In this document: positions 14,700 through 17,928 of the stretch, piece after piece
Position numbering within the stretch: position 1 is the stretch's first letter
How the letters are laid out: every line of letters begins with the position of its first letter
Origin: Thermodesulfobacteriota bacterium B35
Lineage (GTDB): Bacteria; Desulfobacterota; Desulfobulbia; Desulfobulbales; Desulfobulbaceae
Length of the DNA stretch: 24,000 nucleotides
Assembly (NCBI GenBank): GCA_046599375.1
Contig: JBKIWM010000002.1
Coordinates: forward strand, 503,001 to 527,000
Direction of reading: 5' to 3'
Made by a program: the position numbers and the translations under genes
Notes under the pieces: generated by a model
What the model was told of the DNA's origin: nothing
Database searches by the model: none
The model's input: the letters and a program-made list of their open reading frames with translations, nothing else

Positions 14700-14981
14700 T
14701 CAGCAGCAGGGACCCTCGATGCCGAGCAGCTCGTTGATCACCCCCCGGACGCAGCCCTCGCCGGCTTCGACCGTGATGGCGCCGGCCGGGCAGTTGCGCA
14801 TGCAGGCGCCGCATTCCATGCAGTGGTTCCTGGCCACCATGTCAGCCCTGCCCCGCTGCAGCGCAAACACCTGGTGCGGACAGACGGTCACGCACATGCC
14901 ACAGCCGATACAGCGGTTGCGGTCATAGGCCAGACTGACCACATCTTCAAGATACGTCAGCTCAGACATCTGGTGAGTCAT
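14700..14981 (-). CDS. hgcB: HgcB, 2[4Fe-4S] ferredoxin of the mercury-methylation pair
   Basis: 93 aa with two CxxCxxCxxxCP motifs (CIGCGMCVTVCP, CMECGACMRNCP), an additional conserved-position Cys (GEGCVRG) and a C-terminal vicinal CC (..GPCC). AAGGAGGA lies 11 nt upstream of the ATG. The gene is directly downstream of hgcA. Confidence 0.88.
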   Translation of the reverse strand: MTHQMSELTYLEDVVSLAYDRNRCIGCGMCVTVCPHQVFALQRGRADMVARNHCMECGACMRNCPAGAITVEAGEGCVRGVINELLGIEGPCC

Positions 14982-15013
14982 CCTCCTTGAAAAATAGTAA
15001 AAGTATCTGTCTT

Positions 15014-15040
15014 TTCAGGTGGTTGTCCATGGCGTCGGCC
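15014..15040 (-). repeat. 27-nt box, copy F (diverged; minus strand GGCCGACGCCATGGACAACCACCTGAA + AAGACAGATACTTTT)
   Basis: Occupies the 66-nt hgcA-hgcB spacer. Matches copy A at 18 of 27 box positions, plus a shared 3' extension (A: AAAGAGCGATACTTTT). Confidence 0.6.
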
Positions 15041-15047
15041 TATCAGG

Positions 15048-16178
15048 TTACGAAAAAAGCGCCGTCAGCCACAGGCCGAGGCCGATGATCAGGGCCGCGG
15101 CCTGCAGTGGAATGGCCCGCAGCATCTCCCTGCGGACGCCACCGGGTGAAGTGTAGGTCGTGGCTCCGGTGAAGGCCATGGCGAACCAGGAGGCGATGGT
15201 CAGGGTGACCAGCAGCAGGGCCATGCTTTCCATCAGTCCCTGTTCCGGCCACCGGTGCCGAAGGAAACCGAAGATACCGGCAAAACAGACCAGACCTGTC
15301 AACACGCCCTTGCCGCTGAAGGAGCGGCCGGGAATCCAGGGCAGCAGCAGGGGCGTCATCACGGTCCCTGCCAGGATGCCGGCCAGCACGGCCAGGGCCA
15401 TGGGCAGGCCATGCACCTCCACGGCGCGACCATAGGCAAGATTCCGTGCCAGTCCGGAGACAGCCAGCAGGACAAGGATGAGGGGCAACCCGACCCTGAG
15501 GGCCTGCATCACTTCCACCGGGACCAGAACCAGCCGTTCAGACAGTGGAAAATCTTTGACCCGCATCCCCGGTTCTGCCCTGCAACCGTTGTCCAGGAAA
15601 CGGGGCAGATCCGAGGCCATGACCGGACCGTAGATCACCCTGAAGCCGGAATGGCGTCGGATTTCGTGTGCCGCCAGGCCGGGAGCCCCGAGCTGGGGCA
15701 CGATCAGGCGCCGGTGGCTGACCACCTCCTCCAGCCTGGAGGCCTGGATCCGGTCCAGCAGTTCCAGGGTGCCGAAGGTCCCCTTGCCGGCCGCGCACCA
15801 GACATTGATTCCCTTTGTATCCAGGACCAGTATCCACAGATCGCGGCCCGGCAGGGCACTGCGCAGAACATCGAAGCTCATTTTGTAATTTGCGCTCACC
15901 AGGACCGGGCTGTGCTCATCGGGCCGGCCCAGGGCATAAAGGCCGGGCTCGACAGTGAAATGCATGCGGCCGATATTCCAGCGCGCCAGCCAGCTTCCCA
16001 GCCGGTCGCGCAAATTCAGCCCGGCACGGACCTGTGGCACCTTGCCCACCGGAGTGGTCAGGGTGCCGCGGACAAAAGGCTGGTCCGGCGAGGGCAGCCG
16101 AAAAGTGACCTCTCCTGCCCCCGGCCTGGCCACAGGCAGGAAGCGGAGCTGGCCGGAAGCTGAAGGAGTGATGGTCAT
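15048..16178 (-). CDS. hgcA: HgcA, corrinoid-binding membrane protein of the mercury-methylation pair
   Basis: 377 aa with the cap-helix signature GINVWCAAGKGTFG (Cys128; codon at 15795-15797) in a CFeSP-like domain. About 5 C-terminal TM helices follow. The ATG at 16178 overlaps the upstream permease stop (ATGA). The 422-aa track ORF start is rejected. Confidence 0.9.
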   Translation of the reverse strand: MTITPSASGQLRFLPVARPGAGEVTFRLPSPDQPFVRGTLTTPVGKVPQVRAGLNLRDRLGSWLARWNIGRMHFTVEPGLYALGRPDEHSPVLVSANYKMSFDVLRSALPGRDLWILVLDTKGINVWCAAGKGTFGTLELLDRIQASRLEEVVSHRRLIVPQLGAPGLAAHEIRRHSGFRVIYGPVMASDLPRFLDNGCRAEPGMRVKDFPLSERLVLVPVEVMQALRVGLPLILVLLAVSGLARNLAYGRAVEVHGLPMALAVLAGILAGTVMTPLLLPWIPGRSFSGKGVLTGLVCFAGIFGFLRHRWPEQGLMESMALLLVTLTIASWFAMAFTGATTYTSPGGVRREMLRAIPLQAAALIIGLGLWLTALFS

Positions 16179-17404
16179 TTTTCGCTCTTTTTGCCGAGGT
16201 CCGACAACGGCTGCAGGGGCACAGGATGTTCGCTGCCACAGCCGCAGGTGTCGTGATGGTGATCCTGGTGACGGCCATGATGTTCGTGGCCGGATGCGCA
16301 GGAACCCGAGAAACATCCGCAGCCCTCGCCGGCAAACCTTTTCCTGACAATGGCGGCCAGCGGCTGTACCGAGAGCAGCAGGAGAACAATGGTCGCACCC
16401 AGCATCAGCCAGGCAGGCAGGACCTCGGCGGCCTGGCCGACAACAGCGGTGGCCGAGATACCAAGACCCAGGTAGATCACATCGACGATCAGGCCGCAGA
16501 TCACACTGACCACGGCGATGGAGGCAAGATAGAGCCCGGTGGCGCTCCTGCCCAGGATCCCCAGCAGCACGGAGAGCGAGGTGACATTGGTCGCCGGGCC
16601 CACCAGGAGGAAGACCAGGGCCGTGCCAGGGCTGACCCCCTTGAGGATCAGGGCGGCGGCAATGGGGGTGGAGGCGGTGGCGCAGATGTAGAGGGGAATG
16701 CCGAAGGCGAGCATCAGCAGCATGGAACCGATGCCGCCCCCCAGGTAGTGCGAGATCATGTCGTCGGGCACCAGGACGGTGATGACCCCGGCAAGGAGAA
16801 TACCGACAAAGAACCAGCCGACCAGGTCGGCCCAGATATCGGTGACCGCGAAACGGACCCCGGCAAACAGCTTTTCGGTCATGGAATGGTGGTGCCGGTG
16901 CACCTCGGGAGGACAGTCCGCACCGTCGCAGCAGTTGTCGATGGGACAGCGCAGGTCGGGCTGCACCCTGTCCGCGGCTTCGGGCGGATGGAGAAAGTTC
17001 TCCCCCACCCCGGCCACAAAGGCGGAAACAAAGGCGGCCACCGGCCGGGCAATGGTCATGATCGGGTCAAGCAGGGCCCAGGTGATGGAGATGGAATCCA
17101 CGCCCGACTCCGGTGTGGAGATGAGAAAGGCAGTGGTGGCGCCATTGTTGGCGCCCTGTTTCTTGAGCGAGGCCGCTGCCGGCAGTACACCGCAGGAACA
17201 GAGCGGAATAGGTATGCCGAACAGGGCCGCCTTGAAGACCGAACTGAACCGGCCGCTGCCGAGATGACTGGCAATGTAGGCCGGCGACATGAAAACCTTG
17301 AGCAGGCCGCCGACCAGCAGGCCGAAGAGGATATAGAGTGAGGCGTCCTGCAGAAGCTGCCAGGATTCGGCCAGGACATCGGTCAGGAAGGTGATGATGG
17401 TCAT
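16175..17404 (-). CDS. PF03773/COG0701 permease (ArsP / SO_0444-like metal(loid) transporter) with a Cys/His-rich C-terminal tail
   Basis: 409-aa polytopic membrane protein with the vicinal-Cys motif GIPIPLCSCGVLPAAASL followed by ISTPESGVDSI. It has a central CPIDNCCDGADCPPEVHRHHH loop and the C-terminus GCGCFSGSCASGHEHHGRHQDHHHDTCGCGSEH. GGGAG lies 5 nt before the ATG. Confidence 0.8.
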   Translation of the reverse strand: MTIITFLTDVLAESWQLLQDASLYILFGLLVGGLLKVFMSPAYIASHLGSGRFSSVFKAALFGIPIPLCSCGVLPAAASLKKQGANNGATTAFLISTPESGVDSISITWALLDPIMTIARPVAAFVSAFVAGVGENFLHPPEAADRVQPDLRCPIDNCCDGADCPPEVHRHHHSMTEKLFAGVRFAVTDIWADLVGWFFVGILLAGVITVLVPDDMISHYLGGGIGSMLLMLAFGIPLYICATASTPIAAALILKGVSPGTALVFLLVGPATNVTSLSVLLGILGRSATGLYLASIAVVSVICGLIVDVIYLGLGISATAVVGQAAEVLPAWLMLGATIVLLLLSVQPLAAIVRKRFAGEGCGCFSGSCASGHEHHGRHQDHHHDTCGCGSEHPVPLQPLSDLGKKSEK

Positions 17405-17406
17405 GA

Positions 17407-17766
17407 TTACTCCCGTATATGTTCCAGGGCCAGCTCCATGAGCCGGTGAACATGGTCGTCGCTGAGCCGATAGTAGAGGACCGGTCCCTGGCGTCGGTTG
17501 ACGACAAGATGGAGCTGACGGAGGAGACGCAACTGATGGCTCACCGCCGACTCACTGATTCCGAGAAATCGGGCCAGGTCGCAGACACACATCTCGTCCT
17601 CCTGCAGGGCCCGCAGGATGCGCAACCGGTTGGGATCCCCCATGGCCTTGAACAGTTGCGCCATGGCACTGTTCTCGCTCTCGGCCAGAGACGACGCCAG
17701 GGCGCGATCAATACGATCCTGGTGGATACAGCGGCATGCGCACCGGTCTTCAGGGATCTTTTTCAT
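17407..17766 (-). CDS. arsR: ArsR/SmtB-family metalloregulator (CadC-like alpha3N thiolate type)
   Basis: Winged-HTH core (LFKAMGDPNRLRILRAL..EMCVCDLARFLGISESAVSHQLRLLR) with a CVC motif in alpha3 and an N-terminal CACRC cluster. The stop TAA lies 2 nt before the permease ATG. There is no obvious SD; an alternative start is ATG 17664. Confidence 0.85.
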   Translation of the reverse strand: MKKIPEDRCACRCIHQDRIDRALASSLAESENSAMAQLFKAMGDPNRLRILRALQEDEMCVCDLARFLGISESAVSHQLRLLRQLHLVVNRRQGPVLYYRLSDDHVHRLMELALEHIRE

Positions 17767-17794
17767 GGTGTGCGAAAGCGGTGAACTGTTACAA
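17767..17794 (-). repeat. 27-nt box, copy H (minus strand TTGTAACA-GTTCACCGCTTTCGCACACC, abutting the arsR ATG)
   Basis: The 14-nt core GTTCACCGCTTTCG is identical to copy G, and 20 of 22 positions match when the 8 upstream nt are included. Confidence 0.75.
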
Positions 17795-17878
17795 TTTCTT
17801 GCGATATGTACGGTTGTTGCCAGTGACGGCGCACCATTGCCAACTGTTATGGCCGGTCTGCCATGGACGGGCATGTTT

Positions 17879-17906
17879 TATTATCTGCACATCTGTTCAG
17901 ATAATA
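17879..17906. promoter_or_regulatory. 12-2-12 ArsR/SmtB-type operator (minus strand ATTATCTGAACA-GA-TGTGCAGATAAT)
   Basis: The half-sites are inverted repeats matching at 11 of 12 positions, and the outer 9 bp TATTATCTG / CAGATAATA are perfect. The CTGAACA..TKCAGAT core resembles SmtB/CzrA-type operators. The site overlaps the predicted -10 element. Confidence 0.7.
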
Positions 17907-17928
17907 CCACCTGCAGCGGATTCTGCAA
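17901..17928 (-). promoter_or_regulatory. putative sigma70 promoter of the arsR-permease-hgcAB operon (TTGCAG-16 nt-TATTAT)
   Basis: On the minus strand the -35 TTGCAG is at 17923-17928, the spacer is 16 nt, and the -10 TATTAT is at 17901-17906. This lies ~135 nt upstream of the arsR ATG. Confidence 0.5.

Follow-up and report, generated by a model that had tools for sequence, protein, structure and literature searches.

Organization of the hgcAB locus

We analyzed a 24,000-nt stretch of DNA from Thermodesulfobacteriota bacterium B35 (GenBank assembly GCA_046599375.1, contig JBKIWM010000002.1, positions 503,001 to 527,000 of the forward strand), referred to here as the window, in which hgcA and hgcB, the predicted mercury-methylation genes, follow genes for an ArsR/SmtB-type regulator and a PF03773 permease. 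The relationship between this permease and HgcA is the main subject of this report. All four open reading frames (ORFs) are present on the minus strand in the order arsR, permease gene, hgcA, hgcB, and a convergent peptidase gene lies 3' of hgcB.

17407..17766, minus strand: arsR, an ArsR/SmtB metalloregulator of 119 aa read from the ATG at 17766 (PF01022 and NF033788)
16175..17404, minus strand: permease gene, an SO_0444-family (PF03773/ArsP_1) metal efflux permease of 409 aa (NF033936)
16175..16178, minus strand: ATGA stop/start overlap of the permease gene and hgcA (permease TGA 16177..16175, hgcA ATG 16178..16176)
15048..16178, minus strand: hgcA, a mercury-methylation corrinoid protein of 376 aa (NF040863)
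14700..14981, minus strand: hgcB, a 2x[4Fe-4S] ferredoxin with a C-terminal CC and a probable start at 14969 (89 aa; NF040864)

The arsR stop codon (TAA, 17409..17407) is separated from the permease ATG at 17404 by only 2 nt ('tc'), and the ATGA overlap between the permease gene and hgcA probably couples their translation. The arsR reading frame is open back to 17874, which would give a protein of 155 aa, but homologues are only 118-130 aa in length, and the start was therefore placed at 17766. The hgcA stop codon (15050..15048) is followed 66 nt on by the first hgcB ATG (14981), which AAGGAGGA directly abuts. A second ATG at 14969 yields an 89-aa protein and a spacer of 78 nt from hgcA, and is the more likely start, since relatives are 89 aa in length and the spacing from the Shine-Dalgarno sequence becomes 12 nt instead of 0. 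An earlier note on this DNA, made from the sequence alone, had described a four-gene operon with these junctions, and the layout is confirmed, with small corrections of detail: HgcA, correctly identified, is 376 rather than 377 aa; the 66-nt spacer applies to the first hgcB ATG and is more likely 78 nt; and the 93-aa hgcB ORF, which does have the architecture of HgcB, more likely starts at 14969.

The identity of both methylation genes, which the earlier note had proposed to check, was examined with curated models. HgcA reaches 438 bits against NF040863 (cut-off 275), well above its scores with the models for its paralogues, HgcAB-like (190, below the cut-off of 285) and CdhD/CFeSP gamma (68), and the match runs to residue 374, spanning the C-terminal membrane domain. 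The cap helix INVWCAAGKGTF, of the N(V/I)WCA(A/G)GK type, is present, with W127-C128-A129 invariant in 27 homologues and Cys128 as the corrinoid ligand, and a PDB sequence search with HgcA returned CFeSP as the only match. HgcB reaches 108.3 bits against NF040864 (cut-off 99) and has two CxxCxxCxxxCP motifs, a conserved extra Cys and the C-terminal CC. Judged by these models, hgcA and hgcB are bona fide, and methylation activity is predicted for them.

Linkage and fusion of the permease to HgcA

When close homologues of the window HgcA were inspected directly, 7/10 proved to be permease-linked, down to 56% identity, so that the linkage is not unique to this genome. The complete arsR-permease-hgcA-hgcB block was found at P0002, P0004, P0005, P0007, P0024 and P0058, the last of which is Desulfomarina profundi (HgcA 56% identity; AP024086.1), a defined, complete genome within the clade. 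P0019 carries a permease-hgcA pair, and the permease is absent from the hgcA locus in P0011, P0071 and P0073. In addition, 17 HgcA matches lie on contigs equal in size to one of the top-120 permease matches, 3 of them already inspected and 14 additional. The four-gene block is present in at least 16 distinct loci, where it is the only conserved unit, with flanks consisting of kinases and a fatty-acid hydroxylase, LemA/DUF2207, radical-SAM and TrkAH, a sigma factor and Ser/Thr kinase, or copper-resistance genes. Its recurrence among such unrelated flanking genes argues that the adjacency of the four genes is not due to chance. The overlap at the permease-hgcA junction (NTGA, or alternatively TAATG or a 2-nt gap) was found in 16/16 linked loci examined.

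We also surveyed hgcA loci from other lineages among species-representative genomes (80 loci at 45-61% HgcA identity, for 66 of which 1.3 kb or more of upstream sequence was available). A window-type permease beside hgcA was found at 0/80 of these sampled loci; three had distant PF03773 matches (22-24% identity) at 0.6-5 kb. The idea that the permease is a general neighbor of hgcA was rejected on this count. The neighborhood survey suggested earlier thus upholds the linkage within one HgcA clade, but not in other lineages.

Permease and HgcA were also found joined in a single protein. At one locus (L144), a single 758-aa ORF comprises the permease, a Cys-rich tail and HgcA. Given a C8 homopolymer at the junction, an assembly artefact was considered, and it was rejected because four more fusion clusters with diverged linkers were recovered from other data sources. 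In all, five separate 90%-identity clusters of 696-760 aa, derived from ENA, Logan and JGI assemblies, each contain both PF03773 and PF03599 and are 68-100% identical to the L144 query. The linkers have diverged yet remain in frame (SGCGCSSDSCS...SCSC, followed directly by the HgcA N-terminal ILPMA...KQSF), and both halves of the fusion pass equivalog cut-offs (HgcA 432 bits, SO_0444 395 bits). The fusion gene is followed by hgcB, and there is no arsR 5' of it. Because the fusion is conserved, it is strong comparative evidence for joint action of permease and HgcA, whether as one complex or within one pathway. A pair of genes that is start/stop-coupled throughout one clade and fused elsewhere is a classic gene-fusion signal, and it names a specific transporter candidate for mercury methylation.

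Two further observations concern these junctions. In the fusion lineage, two genes for S-adenosylmethionine (SAM)-dependent methyltransferases follow hgcB on the same strand (L172, 7572-9256, plus strand). In the window, the permease gene ends in GAA AAA TGA (16175-16186, minus strand), where tRNA-Lys, by slipping -1 on A-AAA, would bring ATG ACC into frame and yield a fusion; this is probably incidental, and a programmed -1 frameshift at GAAAAATGA was dropped as a candidate, the A-run not being conserved at other junctions.

Loss of the N-terminal motif in permease-linked HgcA

Most HgcAs are reported to carry an N-terminal CC/CU motif (Cys-Cys or Cys-selenocysteine), and many to be selenoproteins with CU (Haft preprint). 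We surveyed this region in 14 linked and 71 unlinked HgcAs by reading in frame 5' of hgcA with TGA taken as selenocysteine. A CC, CU, UC or CxC motif ~12-15 residues before LPxxxQPF was found in 54/71 unlinked HgcAs and in 0/14 permease-linked ones, whose site reads (V/I)P-x-GAG; the window HgcA has neither Cys nor selenocysteine there. Five unlinked HgcAs have neither Cys nor selenocysteine at this site, and two of these are the unlinked members nested within the linked clade. CC/CU is accordingly a common trait of the HgcA family and not a defining one, and the window HgcA is without it. The absence of the motif fits with the permease tail supplying the thiolates lost from the HgcA N-terminus, which would offer an explanation of why this clade could dispense with CC/CU.

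An in-frame TGA just 5' of the annotated start, in a C-U, U-C or single-U context, was present in 32/71 HgcA genes (among L001-L080), providing independent support for the report of CU-motif HgcA selenoproteins. At four Smithella-like loci (L022, L048, L050 and L051), the motif site reads CGCG.

The arsR-permease pair as an independent operon

To define the range of the permease itself, 80 metagenomic loci at 59-100% permease identity were surveyed, 57 of which were informative, an unlinked call requiring at least 600 nt of available downstream sequence. hgcAB was present at 9 of the informative loci and absent at 48/57. In most of the surveyed loci, arsR (55-83% identity) lies directly 5' of the permease gene, and at 10/10 unlinked loci inspected the permease gene is the last gene, followed by convergent, unrelated genes. 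Because the pair so commonly occurs without hgcAB and ends with the permease gene, arsR-permease is a widespread independent two-gene operon, and the permease cannot be described as dedicated to methylation, as had been suggested.

Comparison of related loci indicates that, at the 3' end of this operon, hgcAB behaves as a cassette that is precisely added or deleted. L093 and L091 share 89% DNA identity up to the permease stop codon and are unrelated beyond it, and between L105 and L102 both flanks are collinear, 87 nt in one taking the place of 1.5 kb of hgcAB in the other. In a tree of 95 HgcA sequences (neighbor-joining and lacking support values, as is the permease tree), every permease-linked HgcA falls in one clade, and the only unlinked members nested there are L086 and L027, which are sisters. 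The sub-groups of linked HgcAs match sub-groups of the permease tree. The linked permeases are contained in one sub-clade with long His/Cys tails, and since linked and unlinked members are interspersed within it, the pattern is consistent with an old junction from which hgcAB was lost repeatedly.

These findings invite the explanation that hgcAB is a regulatory hitch-hiker that merely borrows the promoter of an efflux operon, the permease being a Zn/Cu/Cd exporter with no physical or substrate tie to methylation. The arsR-permease operon is complete and widespread without hgcAB, which is gained or lost as a clean cassette; the permease tail and loops are alike in linked and unlinked members; and hgcAB elsewhere adjoins many unrelated genes. 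Set against this, in-frame permease-HgcA fusions are recurrent and have been maintained to 68% identity, the start/stop overlap has been kept to 56% HgcA identity despite unrelated flanks, and the linked clade is also the one in which HgcA has lost CC/CU. With both sets of observations in view, we regard simple promoter sharing as unlikely, though it deserves serious consideration.

The regulator and the transcription unit

Upstream of arsR, the following elements were identified.

17979..18013, minus strand: intrinsic terminator of the upstream histidine-kinase-like gene (GGCCGCACC, 12-nt loop, GGTGCGGCC, TTTTT), a perfect 9-bp hairpin
17901..17928, minus strand: sigma-70-like promoter (-35 TTGCAG at 17928..17923, 16-nt spacer, -10 TATTAT at 17906..17901)
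17883..17902, minus strand: candidate ArsR/SmtB-type operator (ATCTGAACAGATGTGCAGAT), an imperfect inverted repeat over the -10 hexamer

The terminator, which appears to mark the 5' boundary of the transcription unit, was read directly from the sequence; the automated scan missed it, its loop being longer than 8 nt. The operator motif is unique within the window (0 occurrences expected by chance) and belongs to a 21-nt inverted repeat. Among 45 distinct related loci, the strict motif ATnTGAryAnnTGnnCAnAT occurs 5' of arsR in 26/45 and the loose core TGAryAnnTGnnCA in 35/45, and a TTGACA-N17-TAtnAT promoter layout followed by the operator motif also precedes arsR at related loci. A scan of the window sequence found no terminator-like elements between the four genes, and an Rfam scan found no RNA families in the window. 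With one conserved promoter/operator at the 5' end, an upstream terminator that isolates it, and overlapping or tight gene junctions, a single ArsR-autoregulated transcript for all four genes is very likely, in line with the single mRNA predicted earlier. The only internal signal is a weak sigma-70-like match in the hgcA-hgcB spacer (15002-15029, minus strand; TGGACA, 16 nt, GATACT, 9/12 positions).

The regulator matches PF01022 at 61 bits and NF033788 at 99 bits (cut-off 55), and its closest PDB matches are SmtB (1r1t, E = 1e-24), CadC (1u2w, E = 9e-19, aligned from residue 6) and CzrA. Its N-terminus contains C9-x-C11-R-C13-I-H15 (CACRC) and its alpha3 helix C60-V-C62 (EMCVCDL). The C-x-C-R-x-I-H and CVC motifs are kept in 51 homologues, in agreement with the CadC-like thiolate site recognized previously, and these N-terminal and alpha3 Cys residues correspond to the alpha3N arrangement of CadC. 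The alpha5 ligands are complete as well, with D103, H105, H116 and E119 in gap-free alignment to D104, H106, H117' and E120' of SmtB. In the ArsR/SmtB family, a combined alpha3N and alpha5 signature is characteristic of Zn/Cd/Pb-type divalent-metal sensors. Because a full SmtB-type alpha5 site accompanies the CadC-like thiolate site, the sequence points to sensing of the Zn/Cd/Pb type, and not to a sensor specific for Hg or As(III). Expression of hgcAB would be linked to a metal sensor of the CadC/SmtB type and not to arsenic. Other hgcA-adjacent ArsRs in the sample align poorly to the window regulator and are without the N-terminal CxC and the alpha5 ligands.

A CadC-like ArsR (N-terminal CC...C...C and ELCVCDI) was also observed ~1.1 kb 5' of hgcA at a further locus (L021, 465-884, plus strand), at which no SO_0444 permease was detectable.

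The permease and the direction of transport

The permease was placed by family models, and a search returned 7710 homologues. It matches NF033936 (SO_0444 family Cu/Zn efflux) at 400.9 bits (cut-off 300), covering profile positions 1-349 of 351, and this is its sole NCBIfam match above cut-off; PF03773 (ArsP_1) scores 151 bits, and the SaoE model scores 176, below its cut-off of 325. Three features are of particular interest.

17192..17200, minus strand: membrane Cys-Ser-Cys motif (C69-S70-C71 of PLCSCG), invariant in the permease alignment; a signature of the family and putative metal-translocation site
16886..16957, minus strand: central Cys4/His3 loop, residues 150-173 (DLRCPIDNCCDGADCPPEVHRHHH), with C153, C158, C159, C164, H169, H172 and H173 invariant in 41 close homologues
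16178..16366, minus strand: C-terminal tail, residues 347-409, with RKRF, GCGC, a His run, CGCG and PVPLQPL, directly 5' of hgcA

All of the motifs to which attention had been drawn, namely PLCSCG, CPIDNCCDGADCP and the His/Cys tail, are present, and the tail Cys residues and a ..P(V/L)Q(I/L)QPL.. motif are kept within the permease sub-clade. By positive-inside reasoning, the RKRF sequence after the last hydrophobic segment predicts that the tail is cytoplasmic. The corrinoid domain of HgcA is cytoplasmic, and the direct fusion of the tail to this domain in the fusion proteins indicates the same location, in agreement with RKRF. A PDB sequence search found no solved relative of the permease, and an AlphaFold2 model based on a 41-sequence alignment had a mean pLDDT of 57 and a pTM of 0.54.

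Within this family, an SO_0444 mutant of Shewanella oneidensis is sensitive to Zn and Cu and was complemented (PMC3219624), and in Nitratiruptor, Cd and Cu induce a homologue (PMC10092412). Given the sensitivity of the former and the induction of the latter, we take the family to export thiophilic cations, and the window permease may likewise confer Cu/Zn tolerance by efflux.

It had been proposed that the permease is either an importer of Hg(II) or an exporter of CH3Hg+. Published accounts of Hg transport in methylators have so far taken the form of proposals. An importer feeding Hg(II) directly to HgcA would accord with reports that uptake of Hg(II) by methylators is active and may use metal transporters (PMC7438021; PMC12953829), and with the position of the thiol-rich tail next to the HgcA catalytic domain in the fusions. 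However, the experimental data for the family are exclusively of the efflux type (sensitivity to Cu and Zn upon loss, induction by Cd and Cu), and it would harm the cell to induce an importer in response to toxic metal. In the ArsR/SmtB family, control by a CadC/SmtB-type repressor that metal relieves is the regulatory logic of exporters. Because of the efflux phenotypes and this repressor logic, we consider import improbable; the export side of the proposal is the one we favor.

Assignment of the permease to the ArsP type is not supported. By family models it falls in the SO_0444 Cu/Zn efflux family, not with characterized ArsP, and ars context is missing, with no arsC, acr3 or arsM gene in the window. 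This bears on the possibility that the locus is an arsenic system, in which ArsR would sense As(III), the permease would be an ArsP-type methylarsenite exporter, and HgcAB would serve arsenic resistance. The Pfam family is indeed named ArsP_1, the ArsR-like hgcAB regulator of Pseudodesulfovibrio mercurii ND132 responds to As(III)/As(V), and ars genes flank hgcAB in several methylators. An arsenic function nonetheless appears very unlikely here: besides the SO_0444 equivalog match and the missing ars genes, the regulator combines CadC-type Cys with a full SmtB alpha5 site, unlike other hgcA-adjacent ArsRs and the ND132 ArsR2 as described, and the neighboring metal genes are of the Cu/Zn type.

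Genomic neighborhood

Upstream of the block, the window contains the C-terminal two thirds of a P1B-type heavy-metal ATPase (22632-24000, minus strand; E1-E2_ATPase and HAD domains), which continues past the window end. It is encoded on the arsR strand, 4.7 kb upstream of that gene, and so places the hgcAB block in a metal-homeostasis neighborhood. Between the two lie genes for a truncated DUF4118/HisKA protein without an ATPase domain, a second DUF4118/HisKA kinase and a GAF kinase, both with an ATPase domain, and a fatty-acid hydroxylase (18051-22550, minus strand); of the other linked loci, only L081 and L082 have this set beside the block. Downstream, genes for an FtsX-like permease, an M23 peptidase with a coiled-coil N-terminus and an S41/CtpB-like protease (10574-14311, plus strand) form a cell-division or envelope cluster that converges on hgcB and is kept downstream of the block in L081 and L082. 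Elsewhere, the block was observed beside genes for copper resistance (CopB, multicopper oxidase and a Cu-ATPase with HMBD/YHS domains; L170, 6380-9134, minus strand) and beside a ZIP-family zinc transporter gene (L171, 7012-7689, minus strand).

A model for the hgcAB block

Based on the data presented above, our favored interpretation, which we hold to be somewhat more probable than not, is that hgcAB was grafted onto a thiophilic-metal efflux operon, with the permease working in physical association with HgcA and exporting thiophilic metal or Hg species. The loci compared show a pre-existing, widespread and probably autoregulated efflux module made up of a CadC/SmtB-type repressor and a thiophilic-cation exporter. 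In one Desulfobulbales-like HgcA clade, hgcAB was joined in the common ancestor to the permease gene at its 3' end, start and stop codons overlapping. The block has been co-inherited since then, with occasional clean loss of hgcAB, and permease and HgcA have become fused in a related lineage. In the present-day system, a soft divalent metal of the Zn/Cd/Pb type, plausibly also Hg(II), would release the repressor from the operator over the -10 hexamer, and all four proteins would be co-produced, with the ratio of permease to HgcA fixed through translational coupling. The Cys/His tail of the permease would sit beside the HgcA corrinoid domain and may have assumed the role of the lost CC/CU metal-binding motif, and the permease would export thiophilic metal species, with Hg(II) and/or CH3Hg+ most plausibly among them. 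This may represent a methylate-and-expel logic analogous to that of ArsM and ArsP for arsenic.

A more specific version, which we put forward only tentatively, is that permease and HgcA form a complex in which the tail, standing in for the N-terminal Cys-Cys/Cys-Sec site of HgcA, delivers Hg(II) to the methyl-corrinoid and then hands CH3Hg+ on to the membrane Cys-Ser-Cys for export. Were this version true, the permease would be the first molecularly identified methylmercury exporter, and the native role of HgcAB in this clade, a function still debated in the literature, would be metal detoxification by methylate-and-expel.

Several points weigh against the favored interpretation. The arsR-permease pair functions without hgcAB in most relatives, and HgcAB functions without a window-type permease in almost all methylators, so that neither partner needs the other. 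The correlation with CC/CU loss amounts to roughly one evolutionary event, since it concerns one clade, and the two unlinked members of that clade are likewise without the motif. The Cys/His tail occurs in unlinked permeases too, indicating that it is no adaptation to HgcA. The permease of the fusion lineage belongs to a different permease sub-clade, so that the association may have had one origin or two, and the trees are neighbor-joining trees without support values. The AlphaFold model of the permease is too poor to confirm its topology, transcription of hgcB could be partly independent, given the weak promoter-like match in the spacer before it, and every step of expression, binding and transport in the block is deduced from sequence.

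Comparison with known systems

ArsR-like regulators co-transcribed with hgcAB have already been published, as have acr3, arsC, arsM and arsB near hgcAB, which confirms the earlier note's statement that ArsR genes occur beside hgcAB in some methylators. In the literature searched, in which coverage of subscription journals is thin, we found no description of a PF03773/SO_0444 permease linked or fused to HgcA. The closest published arrangement is perhaps the co-transcribed arsR-hgcA-hgcB of P. mercurii ND132 and its relatives (Goni-Urriza 2020; Gionfriddo 2023, bioRxiv 10.1101/2022.10.17.512643), in which an ArsR/SmtB gene likewise lies 5' of hgcAB on the same strand and links control of methylation to metal(loid)s. 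The window differs in having a 409-aa efflux permease gene between arsR and hgcA, overlapping the latter, and the two regulators are set apart by the published description of ArsR2, with Cys26/47/49/86/88 as compared with C9/11/13/60/62 here. Unlike its ND132 counterpart, the window regulator is of the lineage found together with stand-alone permease operons.

The SO_0444 system of Shewanella (PMC3219624) and its Nitratiruptor homologue (PMC10092412) share with the window the same equivalog, the CSC motif and a two-gene layout with a metalloregulator. The partner of SO_0444, however, is a MerR/ZntR-type activator rather than an ArsR repressor, there is no hgcAB downstream, and SO_0444 is without the long Cys4/His3 loop and His/Cys tail by which the sub-family of the window permease is marked. 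SaoE of the selenocysteine-assisted organometallic (SAO) locus (bioRxiv 10.1101/2022.07.06.499078) is likewise a CSC-motif permease in a proposed organometallic locus, with CC/CU in its partners, but the window permease scores below the SaoE cut-off (176 vs 325), and MerB-like or ABC components are not present here.

HgcAB-like proteins (NF043039) resemble the permease-HgcA proteins in being fusions that involve HgcA. In those, HgcA is fused to HgcB, whereas here an N-terminal permease is joined to full-length HgcA with hgcB separate and downstream, and the HgcAB-like score is 201 against a cut-off of 285. CadC-CadA of Staphylococcus aureus pI258 and the SmtB and CzrA operons have an autoregulated repressor with alpha3N and alpha5 sites, an inverted-repeat operator over the promoter and an exporter as target, an arrangement also predicted for the block in the window. 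They differ in that their exporter is a P1B ATPase or CDF protein rather than a secondary-type permease, and in that hgcAB is appended here.

ArsP functions in the efflux of methylarsenite. In the pairing of ArsM with ArsP, as here, a PF03773-superfamily permease is genetically coupled to the methylase of a thiophilic element, which suggests export of the methylated product; ArsP is placed in the Organo-Arsenical Exporter family by TCDB. The two systems differ in that methylation here would depend on the corrinoid protein system HgcAB and not on SAM-dependent ArsM, and in that the permease is of the SO_0444 type, for which a thiophilic metal species is the probable substrate.

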